A DNA stretch of 64,000 nt from Candidatus Undivivens industriae (GCA_012514745.1 JAAYZR010000009.1:10045-74044), one strand, 5' to 3'; positions 12,593-42,762 are shown, counted from the first letter of the stretch. A program made the numbers and translations. The notes: generated by a model not told the origin, from the letters alone.

Positions 12593-13146
12593 AGAAATAT
12601 AACAACGGGTTGATAGTCGGCAGGTTTCAGCCGTTTCATCTGGAGCATCTGCGTCTGGCGGTTGCTGCCGCCGGCAGGGTAAAGCATCTTTGGGTCGGCA
12701 TCACCCGTCCTTTCGGGAAATGTATCCCGGAGATCGGCGGAGCACGGGCCGTCGATGGCGCCAATCCGTTGCCTTACTGGCTGCGCTATCAATGCGTCGA
12801 GTGCGCGTTAATAAACGACGCCGGTTTTTCGCCAACTTCATTTTCCATCCTCCCGGTCCCTTTGGTAAAGGAGATCATCAAGCAGATCGTTCCCCGCGGC
12901 ACCGTTTTCCTGACCACCATAATGGAACAATGGGGGGTGGAGAAGGAGGAACTCTTCCGTAAATCCGGGTTAGAAACCATCAGAATGGATCTCGGCGCTA
13001 AAACCATCTCCGGAACCATGATCCGGGACAAGATCGCCGGCAGAGACCAGTCCTGGAAAGATTTCGTCCCAAAGCATATGCGCGAACGATACGCCTCCGT
13101 GATCGAAACCTACGTCCTTAATTCCGGGGACATAATACTTAATTAA
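12589..13146 (+). CDS. NadM-like (archaeal-type NMN adenylyltransferase family) HIGH-motif nucleotidyltransferase.
   Basis: GRFQPFHLEHL (compare NadM GRFQPFHKGHL). C-terminal ISGTMIRDKIAGRDQSWKDFVP resembles NadM YSGTEIRRRM...WEHLVP. Confidence 0.6.
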   Translation: MKKYNNGLIVGRFQPFHLEHLRLAVAAAGRVKHLWVGITRPFGKCIPEIGGARAVDGANPLPYWLRYQCVECALINDAGFSPTSFSILPVPLVKEIIKQIVPRGTVFLTTIMEQWGVEKEELFRKSGLETIRMDLGAKTISGTMIRDKIAGRDQSWKDFVPKHMRERYASVIETYVLNSGDIILN

Positions 13147-13166: not shown

Positions 13167-13856
13167 ATGATAAAAATAGCTTATAAAGATATCCTTTTAT
13201 TGATAAACGGGCTTTCTTCCGTGCAAGCGGGGGCGGCGTTGCGCACAAGAGACGTTTTGACCTTCAATTCTATCGCGGTTGTCGGCTCAAGCTGCGCCGG
13301 CAAGACGACCATGCTTCGTAGAATCAAAGGTTCTCCGCTCTCCCAAAGAGCCCAAATATCCATTCCTGTCAGATACACCACCAGGCCGGGAAGAATGAAC
13401 GACGCTTCCGGAGAGAATTTCCATCTTTCGCGGACCGCTTTTGCAAAAAAAATCAGGCGGGGGGAGATCGTTTTTTACTGGAGAAAACGGATGGACGCGC
13501 GTTCCGAGGAACTGTTCGGTTTCGGGCCGCCAGTTCCCGGCGTTATCCCGATATATTCAGGCAACAACGGCCTGCTTTTTAACCGCAAGACCGTCCATCC
13601 TAAAAGCGCCTTGAACACGACTTTATTTATCGGAATCTATGCCCCGGACGAGATAAGACGGAAACGTTTGCTTCGGCGGAGCCCGGATTTAGCCAGCAAT
13701 AAACCGGCTGAATTGAAATACCGCCTGGAAGACGGCGCGGAAAAGGTGTTGAGCCGGGTTCCTATAGTTATCAATAACCACGGCCCCTTTATGCGGCGCT
13801 CGGGGCAGGATGTGGTGAAATTGTTGACGAGGATTATCCGGGGACACAATACTTAA
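13167..13856 (+). CDS. P-loop kinase of the guanylate-kinase-like fold, PhnN-like (ribose 1,5-bisphosphate phosphokinase family).
   Basis: GSSCAGKTT P-loop. RYTTRPGRMNDASGENFHLS resembles PhnN RYITRDASAGSENHIALS. Confidence 0.5.
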   Translation: MIKIAYKDILLLINGLSSVQAGAALRTRDVLTFNSIAVVGSSCAGKTTMLRRIKGSPLSQRAQISIPVRYTTRPGRMNDASGENFHLSRTAFAKKIRRGEIVFYWRKRMDARSEELFGFGPPVPGVIPIYSGNNGLLFNRKTVHPKSALNTTLFIGIYAPDEIRRKRLLRRSPDLASNKPAELKYRLEDGAEKVLSRVPIVINNHGPFMRRSGQDVVKLLTRIIRGHNT

Positions 13857-13935
13857 TTATTGGCAGCCGGCCTCCGGTTGTCGGCAGAAGGCTTGTGGTG
13901 ATTGATACGGCCGTACTTTTCCATTCATAAATACA

Positions 13936-14259
13936 ATGCCGCGAAAATTTAAGCGCAAAGGCAGGTTCTGGGTTTATATTGTGCGGTGTAAGGACGGAAC
14001 GTATTACACCGGAAGCACGAGTAATTTAAAGCGCAGGATAGGCGAGCATAATGAAAGCAAGAAGGGAGCGAGGTATACCAGATATAAAAGGCCGGTAAAG
14101 TTGGTATGGCGGCTGGAGTACCGGCAGTTCAAATCTGCTTTTAAGCTCGAGATGAGAATCAAGAAATTAACGCGTTTGAAAAAAGAGATGCTGATCCGGG
14201 GGAGACGTCTGGACAGGGTATTGGCGGGGAAAAGAAGATGCGCAAAGAAGAGATGCTAA
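13936..14259 (+). CDS. GIY-YIG nuclease-domain protein (UPF0213-like).
   Basis: FWVYIVRCKDGTYYTGSTSNLKRRIGEHN is the GIY-YIG core. Confidence 0.7.
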   Translation: MPRKFKRKGRFWVYIVRCKDGTYYTGSTSNLKRRIGEHNESKKGARYTRYKRPVKLVWRLEYRQFKSAFKLEMRIKKLTRLKKEMLIRGRRLDRVLAGKRRCAKKRC

Positions 14260-14500
14260 GGGAAGTATTGAGGATATTATGACAGAACGCGAAAAAATGG
14301 CAGCCGGCGAGCCTTATAATGCCGGCGATCCAGAACTGGTTAGCTTGATTAAACCGCTCCTGTCCGGGATTACCCGGCCAGTTTTACATTCATCCTGGAA
14401 TACATTCAGCCAAGGCGGCCGGCGGCCAGAGGCGCGCTCAATAAGTATTGGGCGTTCGGGCCTCTTGTGGTAAAATAAAATAACTTACTTCAAAGAGCTT

Positions 14501-15313
14501 ATGATACGATCGATTCAGTGTTTACATCCTCTTTTTCAGGCGTTGATCGCGGGTATCTTCACGTGGGCTTTGACCGCGGTCGGCGCGTCGCTTGTTTTCG
14601 CGGCGAAGGAATTCAGCCAAAAGATATTCGATGCCATGCTGGGTTTTGCCGCCGGAATGATGCTCGCCGCAAGTTTCTGGTCGCTTTTAGCTCCCGCCAT
14701 CGAGATGTCGGCAAGCTGCGGAATGATCCCGTGGGTTCCCGCCGCCTTCGGCTTTCTGCTCGGGACAATTTTTCTGCGTCTAATCGATAAATCCTTACCG
14801 CATTTGCACCTTGGTTTTCCGAATAATGAGGCCGAAGGCGTGAAAACATCATGGCATCGCAGTGTTTTGCTTGTTCTGGCGATAACCCTTCACAATATTC
14901 CGGAAGGGCTCGCGGTGGGTGTTGCGATAGGAGCTGCCGCTTCTGGTCTGCCTGGCGCCTCCGGTACCGCCGCTATGGCTCTGGCGTTGGGGATCGGAAT
15001 CCAGAATATTCCCGAGGGTTTTGCCGTGTCGGTTTCTTTGCGCCGGGAGAGGATGTCAAGACTAAAGAGTTTTTGGTATGGCCAACTTTCAGCGATAGTC
15101 GAACCGGTTGCGGCTGTCCTGGGAGCGGCAGCTGTAATATGGGCTAAACCCTTATTGCCATATGCGCTGGGGTTCGCGGCAGGGGCGATGATCTTTGTCG
15201 TTGTCGAAGAGGTAATTCCGGAATCGCAGCGCAATGGCCATACGGATTTAGCTACGGCAGGAACTATCATCGGTTTCTTGGCTATGATGATACTGGATGT
15301 GGCTTTTAGCTGA
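14501..15313 (+). CDS. zupT: ZIP-family metal (zinc) transporter.
   Basis: HNIPEGLAVGVAIG and IQNIPEGFAVS ZIP signature helices; multiple TM segments. Confidence 0.85.
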   Translation: MIRSIQCLHPLFQALIAGIFTWALTAVGASLVFAAKEFSQKIFDAMLGFAAGMMLAASFWSLLAPAIEMSASCGMIPWVPAAFGFLLGTIFLRLIDKSLPHLHLGFPNNEAEGVKTSWHRSVLLVLAITLHNIPEGLAVGVAIGAAASGLPGASGTAAMALALGIGIQNIPEGFAVSVSLRRERMSRLKSFWYGQLSAIVEPVAAVLGAAAVIWAKPLLPYALGFAAGAMIFVVVEEVIPESQRNGHTDLATAGTIIGFLAMMILDVAFS

Positions 15314-15369
15314 TCAAGAAGCTGAAATAACCTGTTCGAGTGGAGCCCCGCGGGCTTAACAGCGGTGAG

Positions 15370-15402
15370 TACTTTCCCACAAGGGAACACTTGCCCAATT
15401 CC
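15370..15402. repeat. Left copy of a perfect 33-bp inverted repeat (partner at 22564-22596); imperfect similarity extends ~18 bp further right.
   Basis: TACTTTCCCACAAGGGAACACTTGCCCAATTCC is the exact reverse complement of 22564-22596. Confidence 0.9.
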
Positions 15403-15479
15403 GCTAAGGGCAATGTGCTATCCCGACCGGGTTAAAATCCGGGATTTCTGGGAGAGGGAATTAAAAAGGAGGAGATAAA

Positions 15480-15959
15480 ATGGGAACAAAAGGAAAAGCT
15501 ATTGTAGAAGTGGATGTTAAAAAACTGCTGGAGATGTTGAATAAGGCATACGCGGACGAATGGCTGGCCTATTATCAATACTGGGTAGGCTCCAAAGTCG
15601 CCTGCGGCAGGATGAGGGGGATCATTGCCGGTGAATTAGCCGAACACGCGGCGGAAGAATTAAAGCACGCCGAGATGCTGACGAAAAGGATCATCACCCT
15701 GGGAGGTACTCCTCTATTAACACCTGAAGATCTGCTGAAAGAGACCAATTGCGGTTACGACGCGCCAAGCGATCCCGATACCATAAAACTCCTGAAACAA
15801 AACATCAAGGGCGAGCAGTGTGCGATTGAGACCTATAAGAAGCTCTTGGATTTTGTGAAAGACAATGACCCGATAACTTATCGCATCATTCTTGAAATTC
15901 TTGAGGATGAGGTTGAACATGAAGAGGATCTGGAGTCTCTTCTTTCAGACATGAAATAA
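15480..15959 (+). CDS. Ferritin-like diiron domain protein (bacterioferritin/Dps-like superfamily).
   Basis: E...EExxH...E...EH pattern (ELAEHAAEELKHAE ... EDEVEHEED) typical of ferritin-like four-helix bundles. Confidence 0.65.
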   Translation: MGTKGKAIVEVDVKKLLEMLNKAYADEWLAYYQYWVGSKVACGRMRGIIAGELAEHAAEELKHAEMLTKRIITLGGTPLLTPEDLLKETNCGYDAPSDPDTIKLLKQNIKGEQCAIETYKKLLDFVKDNDPITYRIILEILEDEVEHEEDLESLLSDMK

Positions 15960-15983
15960 TAGTTAACGGTGAATTGCCTGGAA

Positions 15984-16015
15984 GGACCGTTTATCTATTC
16001 AAACGGCCTTTTTTG
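15984..16015 (+). terminator. Rho-independent terminator-like hairpin after the ferritin-like gene.
   Basis: GGACCGTTT-atctattc-AAACGGCCT followed by TTTTTT. Confidence 0.5.
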
Positions 16016-16136
16016 ATTGTTACAAAAGTTTCTGATAGTCGAGAGTCTAAGAGAAAAAATAAAGAGGTTCTCCTATGGATATAGCGAGAGATAATGTCCG
16101 GAGGACGGATGGGCAGGTTATTTAATCAAGATGCAA

Positions 16137-16300
16137 GAAACCCCGGCTTGGAAGTCGGGGTTTCTTGCGCCCATAGGATAGCTAAGTATTCGCTTGTGCG
16201 ATATACCTTAGCCAATTGGAAGGCCAAGTATTCGCTTGTGCGATATACCTTGGCCAATTGGAAGGCCAAGTATTCGCTTGTGCGATACCTTCATGGAAAG
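16137..16300. repeat. Perfect 9-bp-stem hairpin (16137-16164) followed by a 42-bp tandem direct repeat, ~2.7 copies (16185-16300).
   Basis: GAAACCCCG-loop-CGGGGTTTC. Unit AAGTATTCGCTTGTGCGATATACCTT(A/G)GCCAATTGGAAGGCC repeated at 16185, 16227 and 16269 (third copy partial). Shares the core ATACCTTAGCCAA with 22494 and 22597. Confidence 0.85.
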
Positions 16301-17212
16301 CAGAAAATCGGCATACTATATGTCGCCATAGGCGCGTTCATGATAAGTTTCTCGTCGGTATTCGTGAAACTTGCCCATGTCCAGCCGACGGTTATAGGTT
16401 TTTACAGAATGCTTTTCGGAGGTATCGTTCTTTTCGCCATAACAAAGTCAATGAGAGGCCGATTGTGGCAAGGCCGGCGGCATTTCGTTTTAGCGCTTTC
16501 CTGCGGGCTCATTTTTAGTCTGGACCTTATTTTATGGCACAGGAGTATTTTGTATATCGGCCCCGGGCTGGCCACACTTTTATCCAGCTTGCAGGTTTTT
16601 TTCCTCGCGGGCTTCAGTATCCTGATCTTGAAGGAAAAAATTACATTAAAGTCGGTATTTTCCGTTCTACTGGCCGTAGCAGGATTATTCATGATCTTCG
16701 GCATAGATTGGCACGTTTTGGATTCTCTGCATAAGCTCGGCATTTTCTTTGGATTGGTCACGGCCGCGTGTTATGCCGCTTATTTGCTTTTATTGCGCAG
16801 GATTGTTTCTAAAAAAGGGACGTTTTTAGTCAATAACCTGGCGACGCTTACTTTGATCACGATCACAAATATGTTCATAATGGGGATCGCGTCGGTTTTA
16901 TTCAAAGAAAGTTTTAGTATTCCCGATACTCAAAGCTGGTTGGCATTGCTAGGGTACGGTATTTTCCCGCAGGTTTTAGCCTGGATATTTATTTCAGCGG
17001 GACTTTCCCGGATATCTCCGCTGCACGCGGGTTTGATATTGATTTTACAACCGGTTCTGGCTTTTGTCTGGGACATCATATTTTTTGCCCGTTACACGCC
17101 GTTTCTGGAAATTCTCGGGGTTGTCGTATCGCTATCCGGGATATATGCCGGCACCGTCCAAAGCGGCGCGTATCATAAGAAAAATAGCGACGAAATGAGG
17201 GCGCAGATATGA
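16280..17212 (+). CDS. EamA/DMT-family transporter. The ATG at 16094 given in the ORF track just translates the tandem repeats; the real start is probably GTG 16280 or ATG 16340.
   Basis: Ten predicted TM helices in a two-EamA-domain arrangement. N-terminal KYSLVRYTLANW repeats are an artefact of the DNA tandem repeat. Confidence 0.7.
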   Translation: MRYLHGKQKIGILYVAIGAFMISFSSVFVKLAHVQPTVIGFYRMLFGGIVLFAITKSMRGRLWQGRRHFVLALSCGLIFSLDLILWHRSILYIGPGLATLLSSLQVFFLAGFSILILKEKITLKSVFSVLLAVAGLFMIFGIDWHVLDSLHKLGIFFGLVTAACYAAYLLLLRRIVSKKGTFLVNNLATLTLITITNMFIMGIASVLFKESFSIPDTQSWLALLGYGIFPQVLAWIFISAGLSRISPLHAGLILILQPVLAFVWDIIFFARYTPFLEILGVVVSLSGIYAGTVQSGAYHKKNSDEMRAQI

Positions 17213-17541
17213 GAAAGTCCAGTTTAGATAAAATGATACGGGGTTGGTTCATAGGTAATTTCCCCAGAGCGGTTTATAGGACTACGGAATTCGAGGTCGC
17301 CGTAAAAAGTGAAAAAGCGGGCGCCCGCGTAAATAAACACTTTCATAAAGTCGCCAGCGAGATAACCCTGGTGGTCAAAGGTATTATACTTTTTAATAAC
17401 AAAAGATTCGCTGAAGGAGATATAATCGTGATCGCTCCCGGCGAGGCGGTTGATTACAGAGTTGTCAAAGACGCGGTCACGGTTATTGTCAAGGTGCCTT
17501 CGGTACAAAAAGATAAATACTATACGGAGCGGGGAAAGTGA
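17209..17541 (+). CDS. Cupin-domain protein (possible sugar ketoisomerase-type cupin).
   Basis: Small beta-barrel pattern with the HFH motif ([17 protein letters not shown]...[11 protein letters not shown]); translationally coupled to flanking genes. Confidence 0.5.
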
Positions 17542-18584
17542 AAAAAAGAAAGAAGATATTTATTTTAGGGATAAACGGTTTTATAGGGAATATGATCGCT
17601 GAAAGACTTCTTAAGAAAGGGGATTATGAAGTTTCCGGGGTCGATTTACGTTCTTTCAATATCGGCCGCCTTCTTCCGTATAAAAACTTTCATTTTAAGC
17701 AGGGGGATATACGGACCCATCGACGCTGGGTCGAAAAAGAGATTGCGGCCAGCGATCAGATATTACCTCTTGCGGCGCTGGTTACGCCGATAGATTATGT
17801 GCGCAGGCCGCTTTCGGTCTTCGAGGTGGATTTTGAGGAGAATGTAAAGATAGTGCGATATTGTGCCAAGTATGGGAAACGGCTTATTTTTCCTTCAACG
17901 TCGGAAGTTTACGGGATGTGCTGGGATGAAGAATTTGACGAGAATAACTCTTCATTTGTGCTTGGCCCGACCAGGATGCAGCGTTGGATTTACTCATGCT
18001 GCAAACAGTTATTGGAAAGGGTCATTTGGGCTTATGGAAAACAAGAGAATTTGCAATTTACGCTTTTTCGGCCGTTCAATTGGATAGGCCCTCGTTTGGA
18101 CAGCCTGGAGTCCGCCAGAAAGAGAAGCTCGCGCGTAGTGACTCAACTTATTTTGAGCCTGGTGCAGGGAAGGCCCATTTTGCTGGTTGACGGCGGCAAA
18201 CAAAAGCGGTGTTTTACCGATGTATCTGACGGTATAGATTGTTTGTTCAGGATCATAGAGAATAAAAATAATGTCTGCGACGGCAAGATATTCAATATCG
18301 GCAATCCCGATAACGAATTTACCGTCAAGGAATTGGCGCGAATGCTTATGGAAAAATTCAAACGCCATCCTTTATACGGCAAATTCCCTAAAATCGCCGG
18401 TGTGAAAGATATTAAAGGCAGTTCTTTTTATGGGGAAGGTTATCAGGACGTTCTCCATCGAAAACCCCGCATTCATAACGCTCGAAAGCTTCTGGGATGG
18501 AGGCCTTCCGTGAAGCTGTCGGATTCTTTAAGCCGAACATTGGACTATTTTTTACGGCAGGCGGCCGAAAAAGGGCAAGGGTAA
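17538..18584 (+). CDS. NAD-dependent epimerase/dehydratase resembling the ArnA C-terminal UDP-glucuronate decarboxylase domain.
   Basis: [15 protein letters not shown] Rossmann motif, STSEVYG, and the YSCCK catalytic YxxxK. Confidence 0.75.
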
Positions 18585-18585
18585 G

Positions 18586-19737
18586 ATGAAGATAGACTTT
18601 TTTAAGCATAATATCGGGACTAAAGAAAAAAGAGACCTCTGCAAAGTATTAGACTCGATTTTTCTTACCACCGGGGACGCTGTCAGGGAGTTCGAAAAAA
18701 GGTTCTCCAAATATATTGACTGTAAATACACAATCGGGTTAATGAGCTGCACCTCGGCGCTGCATTTATCCATGCTCGCTTACGGGATCGGACCGGGCGA
18801 TGAGGTTATTACAACTCCTATGACTTTTGTCGCGACCGCCGCTTCCATAATGCATGCCGGGGCTAAACCGGTTTTCGTCGATGTTGAGCCTGCGACGGGG
18901 AATTTAAACGCGGATTTGATTGAGGAGGCCGTTACAAACAGGACTAAAGCCATTTTACCGGTCCATCTTTACGGAAATATGTGCGATATGAGGGAAATAA
19001 GACGTATCGCCAAGAAATATGGTCTTATCGTCATAGAAGACGCGGCGCATGCCATCGAAGCTCAAAGAGACGGATATAAGGCGGGTGAATTGGCAGATGC
19101 GGTATGTTTCAGTTTTTACGCGACCAAAAGTATTACCTGCGGAGAAGGCGGAGCAGTCTCGTTGAATGACAAAGAAAAATCCGGTTTAATAAGAAAACTC
19201 AGTTTGCACGGTCTAACCAGAGGGGCCGCCGATAGATACGTAGGTAAATATAGACATTGGGAAATGAATATGTTGGGCTGGAAATGTAATATGTCGAATA
19301 TACAGGCCTCGTTGCTATTGAATCAGCTCGCGAATATAGAAAAATACAGGGCAAAGAGAGAAAAGATCGCAAGAAGGTATGAAGAGGCTTTCTCGGATGT
19401 AAAAGGGATGAACTTTCCCAAGGTGCCGAAAAACAGCAAGAGCGGCCGGCATTTATTCACGATATGGGTGGATCCCAGGGAACGAGACGAGGCCCTGCAT
19501 TATCTTCAGACAAAAGGGATCGGCGCCGCCGTGAATTATCGGGCTATTCATACGCTGGATTATTTTAAAAAGGTATTGGGTTATCATATCGGAGATTTTC
19601 CGGTTGCGGAAATGATAGGCGATTCCACAATATCCCTGCCTCTATACCCGAAGTTAAGTGTTAAGGAAACGGATTATATTATAAAATCAGTCAGGCAAAT
19701 GAAGTTAAGTCATACGCGCTTCGGAATAACACCTTAA
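18586..19737 (+). CDS. DegT/DnrJ/EryC1-family PLP aminotransferase (ArnB-like UDP-4-keto-sugar aminotransferase).
   Basis: Family-wide architecture with the lysine region FSFYATKSITCGEGGAV. Confidence 0.8.
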   Translation: MKIDFFKHNIGTKEKRDLCKVLDSIFLTTGDAVREFEKRFSKYIDCKYTIGLMSCTSALHLSMLAYGIGPGDEVITTPMTFVATAASIMHAGAKPVFVDVEPATGNLNADLIEEAVTNRTKAILPVHLYGNMCDMREIRRIAKKYGLIVIEDAAHAIEAQRDGYKAGELADAVCFSFYATKSITCGEGGAVSLNDKEKSGLIRKLSLHGLTRGAADRYVGKYRHWEMNMLGWKCNMSNIQASLLLNQLANIEKYRAKREKIARRYEEAFSDVKGMNFPKVPKNSKSGRHLFTIWVDPRERDEALHYLQTKGIGAAVNYRAIHTLDYFKKVLGYHIGDFPVAEMIGDSTISLPLYPKLSVKETDYIIKSVRQMKLSHTRFGITP

Positions 19738-19819
19738 ATGCGAAGAACAACAAAAACCAACGTAATTTCGCCATATATTGTGCCCGGCAAGATCGCCGAG
19801 AGAGAAATGAGGAAGAAAA

Positions 19820-20653
19820 ATGAGCGAGGCCGATAGCATCAAAAGAATGAAACTCTATCGTCATCCCGAAAGAATCTATAATGACCTTCGTTCCGCAGGG
19901 CTTAAAGAGAGCGGCCTGTTAAAGGAAAGGGATGTGTCATGTTTTGATCAGTACCATTATTTCGGGACAGATGCGCTTGATGAAGCCATAGATCTGCTTA
20001 AGATAGACTCTAAAAAAAGAATCATAGAGATCGGCTCCGGGATAGGAGGCTGCGCGCGATATCTGGCGGAGAAGACCGGTTGTCATCTAACGGCTGTCGA
20101 GATCCAGCCGGACCTGGACGCAATAGCGTCTTATTTGTCCTCGCGCTGTTCCCTCTCAGGGTTTATCCGCCACGTGTGCGCGGATATCCTGGATTTTCGA
20201 AAGGAAGGAGACGGTTATGATATAGCTGTAAGCTGGCTTTCTTTTTTGCATATCCCGGATCGTCAAGCTCTTCTTAAGAAATGTTATTCGCTCCTGAAAC
20301 CCGGAGGGCAGATCTTTATTGAGGATTATTACAAGCGTAATAAATTTACGAAAGAAGAGGCCGATGTACTGCGCGAAGACGTTTATTGCCCTTACCTGCC
20401 GGCATCCGAAGAATATAAAGAACAGCTTGCCGGGAACGGTTTTACGGATATCGAGATGTCCGATAAAACAGAATGCTGGAAGAATTTTGTGAAAGAGCGT
20501 ATGCGGCAATTCGGTGAGAGCCGTGACCGGCAGGTAAAGGTGCACGGTATCGACACAGTAAATGATCTGGAGGATTTCTATAAAAAAGTATCCCGGCTCT
20601 TCGAAGGTAATAACCTTGGCGGATTAAGAATCTCAGCTAAAAAACAGCCGTAA
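19820..20653 (+). CDS. Class I SAM-dependent methyltransferase.
   Basis: IIEIGSGIGGCARYLA (motif I) and LLKPGGQIFIED (post-I/II). Confidence 0.7.
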   Translation: MSEADSIKRMKLYRHPERIYNDLRSAGLKESGLLKERDVSCFDQYHYFGTDALDEAIDLLKIDSKKRIIEIGSGIGGCARYLAEKTGCHLTAVEIQPDLDAIASYLSSRCSLSGFIRHVCADILDFRKEGDGYDIAVSWLSFLHIPDRQALLKKCYSLLKPGGQIFIEDYYKRNKFTKEEADVLREDVYCPYLPASEEYKEQLAGNGFTDIEMSDKTECWKNFVKERMRQFGESRDRQVKVHGIDTVNDLEDFYKKVSRLFEGNNLGGLRISAKKQP

Positions 20654-20742
20654 TTCCGGGGACACGTACTTATTTCACCTGTAACCTGTTTGTTTATCGC
20701 CCGGAGCCGATCGTCTGTTATGTAAGAAAAGGAGATATACGA

Positions 20743-21588
20743 ATGTTCCTTAAACGCGGTTTTACTCTAGGTTCACTGATTCTCGTTGTTATTCCGTTCT
20801 TCGTTTTCTCTCGTGTGCATGCGGAGAATACGCAAGGCATTGCTCAATCCGCCCTGGGGATAAGAGAACAACCCGAGATGAAAACGATCGGAATGATCGC
20901 AGGAGTAAGCTGGGTGTCGTCTATCGAATACTACCGTTTGATGAACGAAATAGCCGGGGCCAAGCTCGGCGGGCTTCATTCCGCAAAGATACTGATGTAT
21001 TCCGTTGAATTCGGTGATTTCTCAAAGCAGGAAAGGCTTGCAAAAGACGGGGACTGGGTTCCTTTAAGAAAAACGATGATAGACGCCGCGCAAAGACTTG
21101 AACGCGGCGGCGCGGATTTTATCATAATATGCTCCAATACGATGAACTCTACGGCAGATATCATCGAGCAGAACGTCAAAATACCGGTACTTAGTATCGT
21201 AGATGCCACCGGAGAGAAAGTGAAGTCCGCGGGAATAAAGACCGTCGCATTATTGGGCACCAGATACACTATGGAAGAGGATTTCTACGGCGGCCGCCTG
21301 GAAAAGAAATACGGGCTAAAAGTGGTGATTCCCAATAAAAGCGAGAGGGAATATATCAATAACGTTATTTTCGATGAATTATGCGCCGGTAAATTCTATA
21401 GCGAGTCAAAAAAGAGATATCTCAAGATCATTAACCGGCTCATAAAAGAAGAGGGCGTAGAGGGTGTGATATTGGGCTGCACCGAGATACCGTTGCTGAT
21501 TGAGCAGAAAGATGTCCGCGTGCCTGTTTTTGATACTACAGCCATACACTCCGAAGCGGCGGTGAATTTGGCGATAGGGGATAGATAA
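20743..21588 (+). CDS. Aspartate/glutamate racemase family protein. The start may be at 20878 (MKTIGMIAG); the upstream ~45 aa look like a signal/TM segment.
   Basis: Two catalytic Cys regions, CSNTMNS and ILGCTEIPLL, as in Asp/Glu/hydantoin racemases. Confidence 0.7.
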   Translation: MFLKRGFTLGSLILVVIPFFVFSRVHAENTQGIAQSALGIREQPEMKTIGMIAGVSWVSSIEYYRLMNEIAGAKLGGLHSAKILMYSVEFGDFSKQERLAKDGDWVPLRKTMIDAAQRLERGGADFIIICSNTMNSTADIIEQNVKIPVLSIVDATGEKVKSAGIKTVALLGTRYTMEEDFYGGRLEKKYGLKVVIPNKSEREYINNVIFDELCAGKFYSESKKRYLKIINRLIKEEGVEGVILGCTEIPLLIEQKDVRVPVFDTTAIHSEAAVNLAIGDR

Positions 21589-21658
21589 CGAGTGATGGGC
21601 GAGGCGCAGGGAAATCAGCTAAAAGGGCATGGGTTGGAGGCGATAGGGAGAACAGCCC

Positions 21659-22447
21659 GTGTTTCTACTCGATAAGGGGTTTACTATGAAACAATGGTAT
21701 GAAGCATTATTCGAGAACTACGCGCGCAAATACGATAAAGAATGTTTTGTCCAGGGGACTGTGGGTGAGTGCGATTTTATCGAGGCTGAGGCCGGACAAG
21801 ATAAATCCATAAAGATCATTGATATCGGATGTGGTACCGGTCGCCACGCCATTGAGTTGGCGAAAAGAGGATATAAAGTGAGCGGCGTCGACCTTTCCGA
21901 GTCACAGCTTGCAAGGGCGCGGGAGAAAGCCAAAGAAGCAGGGGTGGCGATCGATTTTAAGAAGCATGATGCGCGGGCCCTTCCGTTTGAGGGCGAATTC
22001 GATCTGGCCATTATGCTATGCGAAGGCGGGTTTCCTCTTATGGAAACGGATGAAATGAATTTCGCGATCCTCAAGAGCGCGGCAAGAGCTTTAAACGTCC
22101 AGGGGAAGCTCATTTTTACCACATTGAACGGATTGTTCCCGTTGTTTCATTCGGTCAGTGAATTTTATAAGTCGGCGCAGAAAGAAGGCCAGTCACAGTG
22201 CAAAGAGTGCTCCTTTGACCTGATGACCTTCCGTGATCATAACACCGTTGTTTTTGAGGACGATTCCGGCAATAAAAGGGAGTTTAAGTGCAACGAGCGT
22301 TATTACATACCCAGTGAAATAACGGGGCTTTTAAAAACGCTCGGGTTTAAGAAAATAGACATTTTCGGCGCGAAGCTCGGGGCGTATTCAAGAAACGAAA
22401 AATTGACTACCGATGATTTCGAAATGCTTGTAGTCGCGGAGAAGTAA
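21659..22447 (+). CDS. Class I SAM-dependent methyltransferase.
   Basis: IIDIGCGTGRHAIELAKRGYKVSGVDLS motif I/II. Confidence 0.7.
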   Translation: MFLLDKGFTMKQWYEALFENYARKYDKECFVQGTVGECDFIEAEAGQDKSIKIIDIGCGTGRHAIELAKRGYKVSGVDLSESQLARAREKAKEAGVAIDFKKHDARALPFEGEFDLAIMLCEGGFPLMETDEMNFAILKSAARALNVQGKLIFTTLNGLFPLFHSVSEFYKSAQKEGQSQCKECSFDLMTFRDHNTVVFEDDSGNKREFKCNERYYIPSEITGLLKTLGFKKIDIFGAKLGAYSRNEKLTTDDFEMLVVAEK

Positions 22448-22464
22448 GAATTTGATCTCTTCCC

Positions 22465-22483
22465 CCGGAAATCCCCGGGTTTT
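22465..22483 (+). terminator. Short GC hairpin plus T-run after the methyltransferase gene (weak terminator).
   Basis: CCCGG-aatcc-CCGGG followed by TTTT. Confidence 0.35.
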
Positions 22484-22493
22484 AGGCCGGGTG

Positions 22494-22609
22494 TACCTTA
22501 GCCAATCGGAGTAACACCCTGCCTTTGTGGGATAACACCTTGCCCTTATGGGGAATTGGGCAAGTGTTCCCTTGTGGGAAAGTATACATCGCTGTGTTAT
22601 ACCTTAGCC
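22494..22609. repeat. Cluster of short related repeats, including the right copy of the 33-bp inverted repeat (22564-22596).
   Basis: Three ~20-bp units (AACACCCTGCCTTTGTGGGA, AACACCTTGCCCTTATGGGG, CAAGTGTTCCCTTGTGGGAA) plus two copies of TACCTTAGCCAA at 22494-22507 and 22597-22609. Confidence 0.85.
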
Positions 22610-22627
22610 AAGTTGAATACTCATCAA

Positions 22628-22727
22628 GTTACCATACAATACTTGAAATTCTATCAATCGTATGGTAACTTTTTATTTGACATCAGTTACCATACAAGAT
22701 ATGCTATTTAGTAGTTTGTATGGTAAC
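22628..22727 (+). promoter_or_regulatory. Two palindromic operators (12-bp arms GTTACCATACAA / TTGTATGGTAAC, 18-bp spacers) with a sigma70-like promoter TTGACA-17-TATGCT embedded in the second.
   Basis: Arms at 22628-22639, 22658-22669 (one mismatch), 22686-22697 and 22716-22727. -35 at 22677-22682, -10 at 22700-22705. Confidence 0.6.
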
Positions 22728-22752
22728 TATTTAACCTTACGGAGAGTTTGAC

Positions 22753-23070
22753 ATGGGAGTGATAAAGGGAGTGCTTAAAGAAGAATTCGAGAATTCTCTG
22801 CGCATGAAGGGTGGATACGAGCGCGAATTGGCAAAATTGCCCAAAGGTAGCCTCATTAAAAAAAAGGTTAAAGGCCATGAGTATTATTATCTTCTATTGC
22901 GGCAGAAGGGAAAGGTAAAATTTATCTATAAGGGCAAGGTTTCCGAAGAAGAGATAAAGAAATATCAAGAAGCGAAAGAATACAGGGCTAAGTATCGAAA
23001 GCTATTATCTCAAGTGAAAAAACAAATCAGGTTTTTACGGAGCGCTCTTCGTGGAAAAGAATCAGTATAA
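22753..23070 (+). CDS. Small lysine-rich protein of unknown function; candidate regulator/antitoxin partner of the downstream nucleotidyltransferase.
   Basis: 105 aa, 25% K/R. AT-rich codon usage typical of the island. Its stop overlaps the next start by 20 nt. Confidence 0.5.
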   Translation: MGVIKGVLKEEFENSLRMKGGYERELAKLPKGSLIKKKVKGHEYYYLLLRQKGKVKFIYKGKVSEEEIKKYQEAKEYRAKYRKLLSQVKKQIRFLRSALRGKESV

Positions 23071-23737
23071 ATTGTGTCTTGAAGTATTGAAGAGATTAGA
23101 AGAATCCGGCATTCTCAGGGATGTCGTTCTTATAGGCAGTTGGTGTATTTCTTTTTACAAAGATTATTTTGGAAGCGTGCAGTATCCCACTGCAATCAAG
23201 ACCCGAGACGTCGACTTTTTAGTTCCGATACCATCGAAAGCGAAGAAAAAGGTAGATATTCCTAACCTGTTAAAAGATTTAGGATTTATTGTTAATTTTA
23301 AGGGATCAGAAGGATATATCCAGTTAGAACACTCAGATCTTATTATCGAGTTTTTGGTTCCTGAAAAGGGCCGCAGTTCAGATAAACCATACCAATTGCC
23401 ACAATTCGGCCTTAATGCCCAACCTCTGCGGTTTCTGGATTTGTTAATACTGGATATAATAAAGGTAAAGATAGAGGGTATTGAAATTAATCTTCCTCAT
23501 CCCGCTAATTTCGCCTTACATAAATTAATCATCTTTCAAAGGCGCACTAAAGAGGAGAAAGTAAGCAAGGACAGAAATGCTGCCGTAGAAATTCTTATGG
23601 CTTTGATAGCGAAGGGTGAGGCGGCGACCATCAAGCGTGTTTATAATACTATGATTCCGAGATGGCAGAAGAAAGTTATCAAAGGATTAGAAGAGGTAAA
23701 AGAAAAGGAGATTTTAAAAATTTTCATGGGAATATGA
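23051..23737 (+). CDS. Nucleotidyltransferase-fold protein (AbiEii/GSU2403-like minimal NTase).
   Basis: VLIGSWCISFY ... TRDVDFLV matches the hG[GS]...h[DE]hDh pattern of pol-beta-type NTases and AbiEii toxins. Confidence 0.5.
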   Translation: MEKNQYKLCLEVLKRLEESGILRDVVLIGSWCISFYKDYFGSVQYPTAIKTRDVDFLVPIPSKAKKKVDIPNLLKDLGFIVNFKGSEGYIQLEHSDLIIEFLVPEKGRSSDKPYQLPQFGLNAQPLRFLDLLILDIIKVKIEGIEINLPHPANFALHKLIIFQRRTKEEKVSKDRNAAVEILMALIAKGEAATIKRVYNTMIPRWQKKVIKGLEEVKEKEILKIFMGI

Positions 23738-23904
23738 TATATGTGAGCGGGCCGGAAGATAACGACGCGAATTAATTTTAAAGTAAGGCTGTTCAATACC
23801 GATGACAAATAAGAGCGATACACAAAAAAGAGTATTTTCACGACCTACGGCTGGCCGGTGGCAGAGTTATAGTAATGCCATGAGGAGCTTGGCTGAAGCG
23901 GTGG

Positions 23905-24711
23905 TTGGGGAATAAAAACATGATTATGAAAAGATTCATTCTGATTATTGGGTTTTTGCTTATAAGCGCAGTTTCGTTTGCTCAAGAGATCGACAAGTCT
24001 CTTTTGCAAGGGTATGACGCGGCTCTGGTGATCTATAACCGGGCTAACGGAGAGACAGTCAACATCGATTCCGCGCGTAGTGGCCAGCGCCTTGCGCCAT
24101 GCTCGACATTCAAGATTTACAATACCCTAATCGGGCTTGAGCTGGGGCTCATCAAGGAGGCTGGCGAGCCGTGGTATAAATGGGATGGGGTGAAGCGTGA
24201 TATAGAAGGGTGGAATCAGGATCTAACACTGCGTGAGGCGTTTAAAGTGTCGGCCGTGCCAGCATATCAGATCTTGGCGCGGGAAATTGGCGAAGCCCGG
24301 ATGAAGGAGTATATTGAAAAAATCGCGTATGGTTCACAGGATATCTCGGCCGGGATTGATATCTTCTGGCTTCCGCGTCCGGATACTACATCCATCAAGA
24401 TCAGCGCGTATGAGCAAGTTGTTCTTTTAAACAAGCTTTTGGACGGCCAACTTCCGTTTGCTGAAAAGAATATCGCGATCTTGCGCGATATCATGCAGGC
24501 AGAGAAGACCGACAAAGGCACGCTTTACGGCAAGACCGGCTCCGGAACAGAGCCGGATGGTAAATGGAACTTGGGCTGGTTTGTGGGTTTCTTGGAGCAT
24601 GACGGCATGACCTACGTATTTGCCTGCAATATTACCGGAGGCGAGAATCCATCGGGCAAGACTGCCAGGACGATCATAGAGAACATCTTTAAGTCGCAGA
24701 ACCTGTTGTAA
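23905..24711 (+). CDS. Class D (OXA-type) beta-lactamase with signal peptide.
   Basis: STFK active-site tetrad, SAV, YGS(Q), KTG(SG) and WFVGFLE motifs in canonical order; N-terminal hydrophobic signal sequence. Confidence 0.8.
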   Translation: MGNKNMIMKRFILIIGFLLISAVSFAQEIDKSLLQGYDAALVIYNRANGETVNIDSARSGQRLAPCSTFKIYNTLIGLELGLIKEAGEPWYKWDGVKRDIEGWNQDLTLREAFKVSAVPAYQILAREIGEARMKEYIEKIAYGSQDISAGIDIFWLPRPDTTSIKISAYEQVVLLNKLLDGQLPFAEKNIAILRDIMQAEKTDKGTLYGKTGSGTEPDGKWNLGWFVGFLEHDGMTYVFACNITGGENPSGKTARTIIENIFKSQNLL

Positions 24712-24862
24712 TAATCCGCCATCCCTATGATCGTATTGAGAAGCTCGGTCAGAGGGATTTTTTATGCGGCGATTTTTAGTATTCTGCGGGCACCCGGGAG
24801 GGTCAGAAAAAGGCTGGCCGGAAAGTCCGTGGTTTGGATTCCTTTAGCCAAAGCCACATTTT

Positions 24863-24926
24863 GATGGACATGGATGGACACGTAAATGTCCACTAAATCG
24901 AAATGTCTCATAAATAGTGGACATTT
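24863..24926 (+). promoter_or_regulatory. Operator-like region upstream of DUF6088-fic.
   Basis: Inverted repeat AAATGTCCACTA-N19-TAGTGGACATTT, plus tandem GATGGACA copies. A second inverted repeat TGTCAGAA-N14-TTCTGACA overlaps a TATATTAT -10-like element at 24990-25017. Confidence 0.45.
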
Positions 24927-25034
24927 CCGACCAGTGAACATTTTGGGGGCGAATTATGACACTGGAACTTAGAAATAGCTTTACTTTGTGTCAGAAGTGC
25001 GATATATTATTTCTGACATTAAAAAGAGATATAT

Positions 25035-25634
25035 ATGACTGAATCTATTGAGAGCAAGATTTTTCGTCGGATTATCGGCAAGAAAAAGGGATGGGTGTTT
25101 GCCCCAAGTCATTTTCTTGATCTTGGCAATCGTGCGGCTATTGATCAGGCGTTGAGCCGGTTAGTTCGATCTGGTGACATTCGCCGGTTAGCGCGTGGGC
25201 TTTATGATTATCCACGGAAGCATCCGGATTTTGGAGAAATGCCGCCAAACGTTAATCGTATAACTGCTGCGCTTGCCGAAAAAGATAATCTTAAGATTCA
25301 ACCGTCTGGAGCATATGCGGCTAACTTACTGGGGTTGTCGGATCAAGTCCCGGCAAAGATTGTTTTATTAACAGACGGCTCTACCCGGGTGGTTCAGGTT
25401 GGTAACTGGCACATTATGTTTAGGAAGACATCGCCAAAAAATATGGCGACTGCCGGGCGCGTGAGCGGCTTGGTTATTCAGGCTCTACGGTACATGAAAC
25501 AAAGAAATATCGACGATAAAGTAATTAATTCGCTTAAAAGAAGATTATCGGCCGAAGATAAAAAACAGCTTATCAACGATATCCGTTATGCCCCGGCTTG
25601 GATAGGTGAAATATTTAAACAGATCAATTCGTAG
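25035..25634 (+). CDS. DUF6088 / AbiEi-antitoxin-like N-terminal domain protein, a typical partner of Fic proteins.
   Basis: ESIESKIFRRI...GWVFAPSHFLDLGNRAAIDQALSRLVRSGDIRRLARGLYDYP matches the conserved DUF6088 core. Confidence 0.6.
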   Translation: MTESIESKIFRRIIGKKKGWVFAPSHFLDLGNRAAIDQALSRLVRSGDIRRLARGLYDYPRKHPDFGEMPPNVNRITAALAEKDNLKIQPSGAYAANLLGLSDQVPAKIVLLTDGSTRVVQVGNWHIMFRKTSPKNMATAGRVSGLVIQALRYMKQRNIDDKVINSLKRRLSAEDKKQLINDIRYAPAWIGEIFKQINS

Positions 25635-25673
25635 CAGTTTCTTGGCTTTAAAGCCAGTAAGGATGGAGGCCAT

Positions 25674-26414
25674 ATGAAAGAGATTTCGAGTAAGGTTGAT
25701 GAGGCGCAGGCAAGAATAAACGCATTGCGCCCCTTTAGCAATGAAATGAATCACCAGATAAAGGAATATTTTCGTATTGGGCTTACCTATTCAAGCAACG
25801 CGCTTGAGGGGAACTCTCTGACTATATCGGAAACAAAAGTGGTCATCGAGGATGGGCTTACCATTGCCGGAAAGCCGCTTAGAGATCATTACGAGGCCAC
25901 CGGGCACAGTGACGCGTTCGATTACATGTATGCGCTTGCTACCGGGAAGACAATAACAGAAGAAGACATCAAGAAGTTGCACGCGCTCTTTTATCACCGC
26001 ATCAAGGAAGAAGATGCCGGTGTATATCGGAAGGTGCAGGCTATTATTACGGGTTCCCAATACCCTTTGCCAACACCAGACGCGCTTCCCGGGATGATGC
26101 AGAAACTTATTAAGGATTTGCCCCGTTTGAAGAAAGATACTCATCCTGTTGTCTATGCCGCCAAGCTTCATAAAGAGTTTGTGTTTATTCATCCGTTTGT
26201 TGACGGCAATGGACGAGTCGCCAGACTTTTAATGAACGTGGCTCTTATGCAGGCAGGATATATTATTGCGATCATTCCGCCGCTCAAGCGCTCTGAATAC
26301 ATCAGCGCTCTTGAAAAAGCGCATAAAAATGATACGGATTTTATTAAGCTGATCGCGTCATGCGTCTATGAGACACAGAATGATCTCCTGCGCATGGCTA
26401 ATGGAAAGAGCTAA
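25674..26414 (+). CDS. Fic/DOC-family protein (AMPylase-type).
   Basis: Canonical Fic motif HPFVDGNGRVARLLMN. Confidence 0.85.
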   Translation: MKEISSKVDEAQARINALRPFSNEMNHQIKEYFRIGLTYSSNALEGNSLTISETKVVIEDGLTIAGKPLRDHYEATGHSDAFDYMYALATGKTITEEDIKKLHALFYHRIKEEDAGVYRKVQAIITGSQYPLPTPDALPGMMQKLIKDLPRLKKDTHPVVYAAKLHKEFVFIHPFVDGNGRVARLLMNVALMQAGYIIAIIPPLKRSEYISALEKAHKNDTDFIKLIASCVYETQNDLLRMANGKS

Positions 26415-26416
26415 TA

Positions 26417-26655
26417 TGATTCTTGTTCTCGCAGGGAATAAAGGTGAATTCAACGAATTCTTAAAAAGGCATACGCCTAAAAGCATTTTTCGTTTTGTAA
26501 CCGGTGAGGACGATTATGAAGGACAGAAGAATTGCGATTTGGTTCTTGTTGGTTCCTACGAAGATAATCCCTTGTGGAGAAAAGTTGAACTGAGAGGCAA
26601 GATGCATGACTATTGTCGAGAGCACGCGATAGATATTATTGAGAGACGAAATTAG
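26417..26655 (+). CDS. Small hypothetical protein.
   Basis: ORF directly after the fic stop with upstream GGAAAG; no recognisable domain. Confidence 0.35.
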
Positions 26656-26658
26656 GCT

Positions 26659-26793
26659 ATGACCAAAAAATGCAAGAAATGCAAAGTGCCGCTGGAAGGA
26701 TTTTTGTACCGGCTGATCGCGAAAACGCTGTTCGGCGTGCGTCCGTCGGCCAAGGATCCAGAGCTGTGTAATAAGTGCGAAGACAAGAAATAA
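26659..26793 (+). CDS. Candidate 44-aa zinc-ribbon mini-protein (CxxC...CxxC).
   Basis: MTKKCKKCKVPLEGFLYRLIAKTLFGVRPSAKDPELCNKCEDKK. Not in the ORF track (below length cut-off); GC-rich unlike its surroundings. Confidence 0.3.
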   Translation: MTKKCKKCKVPLEGFLYRLIAKTLFGVRPSAKDPELCNKCEDKK

Positions 26794-27300
26794 AAGGTTT
26801 CAGGCGGTGCCGCCAGCAGGGCATTGTGACCACCAGGAATGACTATGCAATACTTGGAATGGAATGAGTTGATTTCTAAGCAATTATTTAATCAAACCGC
26901 AGAAATCCCCGGCTTTCAAGCCGGGATAAATGCGGAGTAGATTACCCCAGACTTCAAGCCCGGGGAGTTTCATTAACTGATAAGCTAATATGAAAGGGAG
27001 TGTCTATGGACGATTTTAAAAAGGCTTTGATTTATTATAAAATCCCGAGACGTTGAAATTTTTATAACACTATGATTAGTAAAGAGATATCAAAAAAGAA
27101 GATTTTTTTGCGCACCTACGGCTGCAAGATGGACAAGTTGTTACAAACCGATTTTACAATTCTTGGCAGCAGTGCATAATAAGAATTAATCCATTGATTT
27201 GTATAGAGTTACGGAAAGAGTCGTAAGAAAACCGAACGTAAGTGAAAAACGAGGTAGTGTGCAGAGACAGCGATTTGTACATAGTTAAGGAGGTTGAGGT

Positions 27301-29241: not shown

Positions 29242-29303
29242 TCAGTTATAAATAGATCCTTTCAAATTTACGAAGGCAATAAGGTTATACGAGAGAGTGC
29301 TAT

Positions 29304-29672
29304 ATGAATAACGATGAAGAGCAGTTACGGCTTCAGGAATTTGTTAACATATTACATCAGGCAGATAAAAGATACCTGGGAGAATTGTTGGGTAAGAAAG
29401 CTGACAGAAGCTCAGAATTAGATGATCAGATAGAAAAAACTGATAGGAAAATCATCCAGAGAAAAATTATCCGATCATCAAAGAATTATAACTTAACGCA
29501 AGTAGCGCATTTACTGAAAGTTCATAGGCAAACGTTATACTACTGGATTAAGAGAGGTTGGCTTAATCCGAAACGTGACAGTCGCAACTATCCCGTTTGT
29601 ACAGTTTTAGACATAGAGAACCTAATAAAATGGCGAAATTTGGTCAAAAAAGAGAGCCTTTCTACTCTATAA
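29304..29672 (+). CDS. Helix-turn-helix DNA-binding protein (excisionase/MerR-like HTH_17).
   Basis: LTQVAHLLKVHRQTLYYWIKRGWLNPKR HTH segment. Confidence 0.5.
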   Translation: MNNDEEQLRLQEFVNILHQADKRYLGELLGKKADRSSELDDQIEKTDRKIIQRKIIRSSKNYNLTQVAHLLKVHRQTLYYWIKRGWLNPKRDSRNYPVCTVLDIENLIKWRNLVKKESLSTL

Positions 29673-29724
29673 CGTTCGGTTATACACTTTTAGACACGAA
29701 AGTGCAAAGTCATAACTTATTGAT

Positions 29725-38502: not shown

Positions 38503-38505
38503 GCC

Positions 38506-38765
38506 GGGTAAATTTAACTTCGTGAATGTTTTAAGTATTGCCCTGATCCTGCGAAACAGGATCAGGGTAACCCGACAAGCGCTCGAAAATCTCCCCTGGG
38601 GGAGAGATTTTTTCGGTCGGCCCTGCGGGTAAATTTAACTTCGTGAATGTTTTAAGTATTGCCCTGATCCTACGAAACAGGATCAGGGTAACCCGACAAG
38701 CGCTCGAAAATCTCCCCTGGGGGAGAGATTTTCTCGGTCGGCCCTGCGGGTAAATTTAACTTCGT
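38506..38765 (+). repeat. Tandem direct duplication of a 121-bp unit (2 copies plus an 18-bp third start) filling the grpE-dnaK spacer; each unit carries two hairpins, the second terminator-like.
   Basis: Units at 38506-38626 and 38627-38747, near identical. Hairpins CCCTGATCCTG-cgaaa-CAGGATCAGGG and TCTCCCC-tg-GGGGAGAG followed by a T-run. The dnaK RBS lies in the partial third copy. Confidence 0.9.
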
Positions 38766-38788
38766 TAAATTTAGTTAGGAGGTGCGAT

Positions 38789-42683: not shown

Positions 42684-42762
42684 TTCGGTCACGGCTACAG
42701 TAATCAACAAAGCTCAACCTACAGTAGAATTGCCCGGTTTAAAAGCCGGCTTTACCTTTAAT

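Follow-up and report, generated by a model that had tools for sequence, protein, structure and literature searches.

The repetitive extragenic palindromic (REP) sequences and bacterial interspersed mosaic elements (BIMEs) of Enterobacteria and Pseudomonas, which include the REPINs that RAYT transposases mobilize, are ~35-nt bulged imperfect palindromes that are extragenic and conserved within lineages. They lie mostly between co-directional genes within transcription units, where they form mosaic arrays with linker modules, and REP stem-loops modulate mRNA stability. The BOX elements of Streptococcus pneumoniae (boxA-boxB(n)-boxC) have end modules and a ~45-nt internal module in variable tandem copies; they too are intergenic, lack a transposase of their own and are predicted to form stable stem-loops. 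Here we compare with these systems a pair of inverted repeats in a 64,000-nt stretch of DNA from Candidatus Undivivens industriae (GCA_012514745.1, JAAYZR010000009.1:10045-74044; this whole stretch is called the window, and positions are counted from its first letter). A preliminary description of the window had noted that perfect 33-bp inverted repeats bracket a 7.2-kb segment with amino-sugar and iron genes, and had suggested that the segment is invertible, excisable or mobilized, or that the repeats are recombination hot spots.

We find that the two arms are very probably oppositely oriented members of a modular family of extragenic hairpin repeats of the REP/BIME or BOX kind, specific to a group of Candidatus Omnitrophota. 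Since the arms belong to a dispersed hairpin family, their inverted arrangement around the 7.2-kb segment is incidental. In its behavior the family is closest to the REP/BIME and pneumococcal BOX elements, and our searches of the literature on intergenic, palindromic or repetitive repeats of Omnitrophota/Omnitrophica found nothing relevant. The family is thus, as far as those searches go, a structured and modular one with no earlier description found for Candidatus Omnitrophota, and it comes with a usable covariance model and clear covariation.

Structure and distribution of the repeat unit

The basic unit is ~42-47 nt long and contains two hairpins. Hairpin 1 (14 nt) has the form TTCNC-ACRA-GNGAA, a 5-bp stem with a tetraloop, and hairpin 2 (~35 nt) consists of AAYAC-TTGSCC, a 6-12-nt loop and GGSCAA-G-GTRTT, which give 11 bp with one bulged G. 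Units occur singly or in direct tandem arrays of up to ~10. The arrays carry end modules, A1 (GTGGAGCCCCTCGGGCTAAAGCCCGCGGCTCC) or A2 (AACCCCGTGTCGTAAGATACCGGAAAAATCCCTTCGGTATTT) on the 5' side and C1 (CCCGGGTTAAAACCCGGGGATTTCTGGGCGAGGGGATT), C2 (AATCCGGCTTGAAAGCCGGGGATTTCTGCGGTTTGATTAAA) or C3 (ATTAAGTATTGTGTCCCCGGAATT) on the 3' side.

The structure was tested on a MAFFT alignment of 41 distinct units, and the covariance model R1 was built from the same 41. In this alignment 95.1% of the cells fall in standard pairs, versus 21-44% after a shift of the 3' partners by 1-3 columns. Double-sided changes are present in 6 of the 14 pairs (66 cells), with compensatory examples such as CG/GC/AU in hairpin 1 and GC/CG, CG/UA and UA/CG in hairpin 2, and none of 500 shuffles matches either the observed covariation score or the percentage of paired cells. 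Both hairpin stems are maintained by compensatory substitutions, and the loops and linkers are strongly conserved in sequence across genomes. The same kind of change is visible between close relatives: in a contig 97% identical to the window (L053), the units of the array that lies inside the bracketed segment show a concerted, stem-compensatory change from TTGGCC/GGCCAA to TTAGCC/GGCTAA. No Rfam 15 family matches the whole window at the gathering threshold, and none matches positions 15000-23000 at E <= 1.

R1 finds 75 matches in 38 loci of other genomes, nearly all of them intergenic. The neighbors of the arrays are unrelated housekeeping genes (Ddl, PGK, PdxJ, FtsH, alanine racemase, DisA and TsaE/TsaB among them), and the recurrent Pfam families listed for the 137 open reading frames (ORFs) within 3.5 kb of arrays are all housekeeping and include no transposase or recombinase. 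A search of 185,579 species genomes, one genome per species, with a degenerate 22-mer from the core gave matches in only two Candidatus Omnitrophota metagenome-assembled genomes (MAGs), WOFB22 (10 matches in 7 stretches on 6 contigs) and SO_2017_LW3_111 (2 matches). A slightly looser core pattern is present in 29 metagenome stretches, and the core pattern has no match in viral contigs. At the DNA level the loci found with these two patterns have the repeats in common with the window but not the neighboring genes, and the pieces of WOFB22 compared with the window proteins contain no orthologous genes. The proteins of the window were deposited under an 'Elusimicrobia bacterium' MAG label, and their close homologs are labeled Candidatus Omnitrophota.

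The core of the arms is itself widely shared. Its 28-mer is found at 11 distinct sites beyond the window's own locus (14 matches in 10 loci, with two duplicate records), and the exact 33-mer is also present in three WOFB22 loci (L016, L018 and L021). Because this 28-33-nt core is conserved across genomes, the perfect match between the two arms needs no recent duplication. The locus L016 is the whole of WOFB22 contig WOZK01000032.1 (1-5835), which carries housekeeping genes (MtnA-like, ThiL-like, TsaE, TsaB and alanine racemase-PilZ) and has at its two ends composite repeats of ~450 nt, inverted relative to each other and with hairpin arrays in them. It provides another instance of a 'bracketed block', here with genes that are unlikely to be mobile.

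A search of the whole window with R1, filters off, finds only three arrays (Table 1), the third of which lies 0.8 kb inside the left arm and had gone unnoticed in the preliminary description. The left element consists of a truncated A1 module, one unit and C1, the internal one of C2 and three units, and the right one of C1, ~2.5 units and a residual half-unit. The sequence 5' of the left unit, which folds into a hairpin, was compared with the A1 module found 5' of arrays at L024, L032, L039 and L047. The reverse complement of the internal array, TATCGCACAAGCGAATACTTGGCCTTCCAATTGGCTAAGGTA, aligns with TTTCCCACAAGGGAACACTTGCCCAATTCCGCTAAGGGCAATG of the left arm. C1 is found 3' of arrays at six other loci as well (L019, L020, L022, L028, L032 and L052), and at L020 it likewise precedes a gene start. 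C2, whose hairpin reads ...AAATCCCCGGCTT..AAGCCGGG..., has a second copy in the window at 26884-26925 and adjoins arrays at L015, L017, L035, L042 and L048.

Table 1. Parts of the three hairpin arrays in the window
Feature	Position	Strand	Remarks
Left element, 5' flank	15340-15372	+	GTGGAGCCCCGCGGGCTTAA, truncated copy of the A1 hairpin module, followed by the degenerate small hairpin ACAGCGGTGAGTAC
Left element, one full unit	15373-15427	+	Hairpin 1 TTCCC-ACAA-GGGAA and bulged hairpin 2 ACACTTGCCC...GGGCAATGTG; R1 match of 55.9 bits (E = 3e-11); includes left-arm 33-mer 15370-15402
Left element, 3' C1 end module	15428-15465	+	CCGGGTTAAAATCCGGGATTTCTGGGAGAGGGAATTAA; aligns to right arm; ends 15-20 nt upstream of the ribosome-binding site and ATG (15480) of the ferritin/Dps-like gene
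C2 end module	16109-16168	-	Hairpin GCAAGAAACCCCGGCTTGGAAGTCGGGGTTTCTTGC; found by direct repeat and inverted repeat detection
Internal array	16169-16305	-	Three tandem 42-nt units, the last truncated; found by repeat detection and R1 (67.7 and 31.7 bits, 16194-16287); immediately upstream of the EamA gene, overlapping its probable GTG start (16280)
Right element, C1 end module (reverse complement)	22456-22493	-	Found by alignment to left arm; begins 9 nt past the stop codon of the second methyltransferase gene; kept in a relative without the right-arm core
Right element, 106-nt block	22494-22599	-	~2.5 units; includes right arm 22552-22584; R1 match of 63 bits at 22526-22581; bounded by the 12-nt direct repeat TACCTTAGCCAA at 22494-22505 and 22600-22611
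Residual half-unit	22600-22620	-	TACCTTAGCCAAGTTGAATAC; common to the window and the relative without the 106-nt block

The third 3' module, C3, is the reverse complement of a 24-nt motif, ATTCCGGGGACA(C/T)AATACTTAAT, that is present three times in the window (13118-13144, 13832-13858 and 42659-42685). Each copy forms the extreme 3' end of an ORF, to which it contributes the final codons and the TAA stop. Elsewhere C3 adjoins arrays at L018, L024, L028, L036 and L039.

Against this background, the likeness to BOX elements lies in the distinct end modules (A1/A2 and C1/C2/C3), the internal unit in 1 to ~10 copies and the strain-dependent copy number. The two differ in phylum, in the several alternative end modules found here and in the units that also stand alone; the likeness is one of architecture. 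From REP/BIME elements the family differs in that direct tandem two-hairpin units replace the alternating inverted REP pairs, in that the unit consensus TTTCnCACnAGCGAACACTTGGCC...GGCCAAGGTGT lacks the 5' GTAG tetranucleotide, and in that a Shine-Dalgarno-like GGAG stands at one terminus, next to start codons; its observed copy number is low, and in the sequence examined no gene was seen for RAYT, an IS200/IS605-like Y1 transposase whose gene typically has REPs on its flanks. Other repeats are more distant. Miniature inverted-repeat transposable elements (MITEs) such as the Correia elements of Neisseria are likewise small, non-autonomous intergenic repeats able to bring regulatory signals, but the units here have neither terminal inverted repeats nor a target-site duplication, and their size varies by the number of tandem units. 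The repeats of a CRISPR array alternate with unique spacers, whereas the units here are contiguous and have none.

The inverted pair and the segment it brackets

There are exactly two copies of the 33-mer TACTTTCCCACAAGGGAACACTTGCCCAATTCC in the window, one at 15370-15402 (+) and the other at 22552-22584 (-), against a chance expectation of 0 from 100 shuffles of the window. The exact pair described earlier does exist, although its right copy had been placed 12 nt too high (at 22564-22596). The similarity does extend beyond the 33 nt, and it is longer than the ~50 bp in total previously estimated: without gaps the arms align over 44 nt at 93% (15359-15402 vs 22552-22595), and with gaps they are similar over ~100-140 nt (~15359-15462 vs 22456-22595), the right arm having an additional 36-nt sub-unit that appears as a single indel.

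The perfection of the match varies among assemblies. The ENA contig L001 is 99.99% identical to the window over 20 kb, and its only 2 differences both fall in the right arm (22524 T/C and 22558 G/A); the arm match in L001 is 26+6 nt, not 33 perfect, and the 'perfect' identity is therefore assembly-dependent. It is conceivable that this identity is an assembly artefact, in which reads of several copies were collapsed into one consensus, and the restriction of the differences to the right arm would fit such an origin. So would a contig from the Joint Genome Institute (JGI), L069, which carries the 106-nt block of Table 1 as two tandem copies, copy 1 being the window version and copy 2 the L001 version; because these tandem copies bear exactly those two variants, the single-copy versions may be collapsed assemblies. 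On the other hand, this independent contig has the window variant, perfect 33-mer included, as its copy 1, the left arm is unchanged in seven independent contigs, and the 33-mer is found in the genome of another species. In view of this agreement we regard an artefact as improbable and the repeat as real; doubt attaches only to how many 106-nt blocks the window has.

That block is in fact highly variable, with 0 copies in L053, 1 in the window and L001 and 2 in L069. The 42-mer of the internal array is likewise present in 2 or 3 copies depending on the assembly, L003-L005 having one 42-nt unit fewer. Units would expand and contract by slipped-strand events or unequal recombination, together with gene conversion between copies.

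The gene content previously given for the bracketed segment is borne out by a Pfam scan. The genes encode a ferritin/Dps-like protein, EamA, a 110-aa protein (its cupin match is sub-threshold only), ArnA-C-terminal-like and ArnB/DegT-like proteins, two methyltransferases and an Asp/Glu racemase. As had also been said, the scan shows no transposase or recombinase inside the segment, and none of the 20 ORFs between 13.1 and 31 kb encodes a serine or tyrosine recombinase, an invertase or a transposase. A tRNA/tmRNA scan for integration sites was also negative. Between 11 and 31 kb every gene is on the + strand.

Comparison with relatives is informative here. One of them (L053/L054, 97-98% nucleotide identity) agrees with the window in the locus and orientation of the operon, whose genes and neighbors are in the order GIY-YIG, Mac fragment, EamA, 110-aa gene, epimerase, DegT, methyltransferase, racemase, second methyltransferase and DUF6788. 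It is without window positions 14344-16035 (ZIP, left arm and ferritin), L053 also lacks 16109-16174 as an indel, and on the right it is without the 106-nt block that contains the right-arm 33-mer. Because C1 and the half-unit are kept there, the right-arm difference is a change in unit number rather than an insertion de novo. Presence or absence of one arm is independent of that of the other, and the operon exists without them.

In a second group of relatives (L057-L063, ~90% identity) ZIP is directly followed by DegT. In the ZIP-DegT spacer (L058 10830-11020, and L059-L063) a ferritin gene fragment is fused with the 3' end of the gene for the epimerase, and relatives of the L058 type are without the ferritin, EamA, 110-aa and epimerase genes. 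These remnants indicate that the genes were once present and were later deleted piecemeal, rather than moved as a unit. Breakpoints in relatives lie at 14343/16036, 15356/18520, 16014 and 22494/22599, and none corresponds to the pair of arm ends. The synteny comparison that had been proposed for presence or absence of a cassette thus shows relatives that differ by piecemeal indels with other breakpoints. One further contig of low coverage (L006; ERZ747220, 2236-3638) is identical to window 13780-16014 and continues beyond 16014, directly after the ferritin terminator, with rpoA, which is on the opposite strand; either the arrangement is a true alternative or the assembly is chimeric.

These data bear directly on the idea that a site-specific recombinase flips or excises the 7.2-kb block through the two arms as a switch. 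Like the Hin/Gin/Fim-type invertible segments and shufflons, the block is flanked by inverted repeats (33 nt, or ~100 nt with gaps); short-read contigs break at both arms, and the 5.8-kb contig L016 of another Omnitrophota MAG ends in inverted composite repeats. But every contig that spans an arm (L001, L002, L006-L009, L064, L065, L068 and L069) is in the reference orientation, so at the contig level the inverted orientation of 15.4-22.6 kb that had been envisaged is not seen. The contig ends are no evidence of flipping, because the Logan assembly (k=31) breaks at any repeated >=31-mer, and such breaks are also expected from a tandem 106-nt duplication with two single-nucleotide polymorphisms. 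Genes inside and outside the block are co-directional with no apparent promoter or coding junction to be switched, no recombinase, invertase or transposase gene lies between 13 and 31 kb, and the repeats occur singly and at many unrelated sites, a third array being inside the block and the arms being independently absent in relatives. We consider such a switch extremely unlikely. RecA-dependent recombination needs roughly >=25 nt of perfect identity, and the arms could support a rare RecA-mediated inversion, for which they would be at most a weak substrate; nothing suggests that it happens.

A composite or MITE-like cassette, with the arms as terminal inverted repeats used in trans by a transposase and the amino-sugar/iron genes as cargo, appears no less remote. 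The terminal inverted repeat architecture, a G+C content of 44-48% at 16-22 kb against 53-57% in the flanks, and the gene content of the surroundings, which differs between strains, would all agree with it. There is no target-site duplication (outer flanks: left ...GGGCTTA|ACAGCGG, right CGCTGT|GTTATACC), the block is never gained or lost as a unit in relatives, the ferritin/epimerase pseudogene remnants show vertical presence followed by decay, and the relative without both arms has the operon at the same chromosomal position. The mobile or invertible cassette of the preliminary description is thus not upheld: the operon is in place without the arms, and neither a recombinase, nor a target-site duplication, nor an inverted contig was found. 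What holds of its MITE-like elements and hot spots is that the repeats are small ones of the REP/MITE kind and are local hot spots of rearrangement, as seen in the 106-nt block (0, 1 or 2 copies), the 42-mer (2 or 3 copies) and several strain breakpoints close to arrays. The repeat does lie at unrelated intergenic sites and a relative does have the operon without the pair, but the number of copies seen is low and not in the hundreds as anticipated for a generic REP-like element. With no invertible or mobile cassette, the amino-sugar/iron block is best read as an ordinary chromosomal operon in a decaying, strain-variable region.

Integron attC sites, as in clusters of attC sites lacking an integron-integrase (CALIN), were considered in view of the co-directional genes and the toxin-antitoxin and OXA-like genes nearby. 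They were rejected, since the units are too short (42-47 nt), are in tandem, have no R-box core and lie between housekeeping genes; attC sites are 57-141-nt hairpins with R''/L''-L'/R' boxes (GTTRRRY), a core that the units lack (GTGTTAT...), and no integrase was found.

Orientation, gene context and possible function

The arrays are not randomly oriented. At de-duplicated sites with co-directional neighbors, 21 are antisense and 4 sense to the model (binomial p ~0.001); the four sense sites are the left arm of the window, which therefore reads in the same sense as its flanking genes and is of the minority type, L020, L032 and the right end of L016. In the majority orientation, single units often occupy the entire spacer between two co-directional genes and end in ...GTGCGAAGGAG (GAAGGAG), 5-9 nt before the next ATG (L027, L030, L031, L035, L037, L044 and L053), and the internal array of the window reaches the probable GTG start of EamA in like manner. 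Scans for sigma-70 promoters and intrinsic terminators gave counts not above those of shuffled sequences, and none was called within arrays; the nearest promoter call, a weak 9-of-12 match at 22613-22640, just touches the residual half-unit.

By analogy with REP/BIME and BOX elements, stem-loops in the transcript would act between cistrons, on mRNA stability or on the initiation of downstream translation, and hairpin arrays may be a general device for expression or mRNA stability in a phylum that has almost no experimental genetics. One may go further and take the units to be chiefly dedicated cis-regulatory RNA elements of the host, intercistronic or in 5' untranslated regions (5'-UTRs) and bound or cut by a specific protein, rather than selfishly spreading repeat DNA, with the left copy of the window as an exception or non-functional. 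The orientation bias, the single units that fit stop-to-start spacers exactly, with a terminal GAAGGAG 5-9 nt ahead of the ATG, the strong structural covariation and the high conservation of loops and linkers across genomes all speak for it. Against it, the downstream genes are functionally unrelated, the unit number varies freely between near-identical strains, some copies are opposite, no candidate binding protein was identified, and wobble pairs show no strand preference. In addition, one unit is translated in frame within a gene for class II ribonucleotide reductase (L050 8784-8835), where it encodes QTKHLGLSEGQVFARAK within the linker that joins the catalytic core to the TSCPD domain; this is the one intragenic case among ~33 sites. 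We therefore think this explanation rather unlikely, though it deserves more weight than the cassette models. Slightly less probable still is an Omnitrophota-specific intercistronic/5'-UTR RNA element of a class not described before, which has its own Shine-Dalgarno sequence, is read by a dedicated protein (an RNA-binding protein or an endonuclease) that sets how stable or how well translated single cistrons are, and can still multiply and move, coding linkers included; if this were true, the repeat family would combine mobility with the role of a genome-wide expression module in a little-known phylum.

The in-frame copy recalls the Rickettsia palindromic elements, which also place a palindromic repeat in frame in protein genes but are 100-150 nt long and often intragenic. 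It suggests that new sites may be seeded by a trans-acting function; recombination could also seed them.

We return to the reading of the arms as members of a REP/BIME- or BOX-like family, on which several observations weigh unfavorably. No mobilizing enzyme was identified. The wobble pairs (10 G-U vs 5 A-C) show no strand preference, which leaves the orientation bias and the position as the sole basis for a function at the RNA level, and for the same reason the hairpin structure may matter on both strands or as DNA. The orientation tally comes from crude ORF calls at sites that are not all phylogenetically independent. Copies per genome look low, unlike the hundreds of classical REP families: we see 3 arrays in 64 kb and, with the strict 22-mer, >= 7 loci in WOFB22, and R1 finds no unit in six loci (~115 kb, all of the ZIP region) of the ~90%-identical relative. 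All three arrays of the window fall in 7.3 kb of lower-G+C, strain-variable sequence, and being so clustered they could possibly be linked with locally acquired DNA. Finally, some strain breakpoints lie at or near arrays (15356 in L057; 16014-16108 in L006 and L053), so the arrays may possibly take part in rearrangement.

Two other ideas were rejected. That the 42-nt period, in frame with a long EamA ORF, might be a coding repeat is contradicted by the periods of other members, which are not multiples of 3, by the upstream frame, which is unconserved in L053, and by the strain differences, which are stem-compensatory. A small RNA that titrates CsrA/RsmA through the repeated ACAAGGGA motifs does not fit either, because the GGG belongs to a paired position of the stem, where it changes to GCG and GTG, and there is no conserved GGA loop.

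On the practical side, the hairpin arrays break short-read assemblies of Omnitrophota MAGs, and their hypervariable spots are useful for strain typing.

The surrounding region

The right repeat had been placed exactly at the boundary of an AT-rich island. This is not so, as the sequence in common with the close relative runs on to 23286. A strain-variable, low-G+C island with toxin-antitoxin and defence-type genes occupies 23287-29754 and starts 0.7 kb beyond the right arm; the G+C content is 33-39% at ~27-30 kb. It contains part of an NTP_transf_8 gene, genes for OXA-like (PF00905), DUF6088/AbiEi and Fic proteins, a 646-aa protein without a family and a MerR-like protein. Between the same island flanks, L053 has entirely different genes (DUF6788 ... 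MiaB-like). Between the right arm and the island, at 22627-22728, the palindrome GTTACCATAC...GTATGGTAAC is present twice, with promoter-like hexamers, upstream of the DUF6788/NTP_transf_8 gene pair; to judge from the sequence, these palindromes look like an autoregulated toxin-antitoxin operator.

On the other side of the operon, a small stand-alone GIY-YIG nuclease gene at 13936-14259 is variable among very close relatives: the window, L053 and L058 have it, L059 and L062 do not, and in L057 something else takes its place.

Two further repeats lie farther to the right. At 38505-38768, between a grpE-like ORF and dnaK (start 38789), a 121-nt unit is present in ~2.2 tandem copies with 98% identity, each copy having two strong hairpins, TTGCCCTGATCCTGCGAAACAGGATCAGGGTAA and GAAAATCTCCCCTGGGGGAGAGATTTT, which are unlike the CIRCE element. 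The region 49400-61600 is a run of paralogous radical-SAM-type genes with repeated DNA (58295-58459 vs 59647-59811, 70%).

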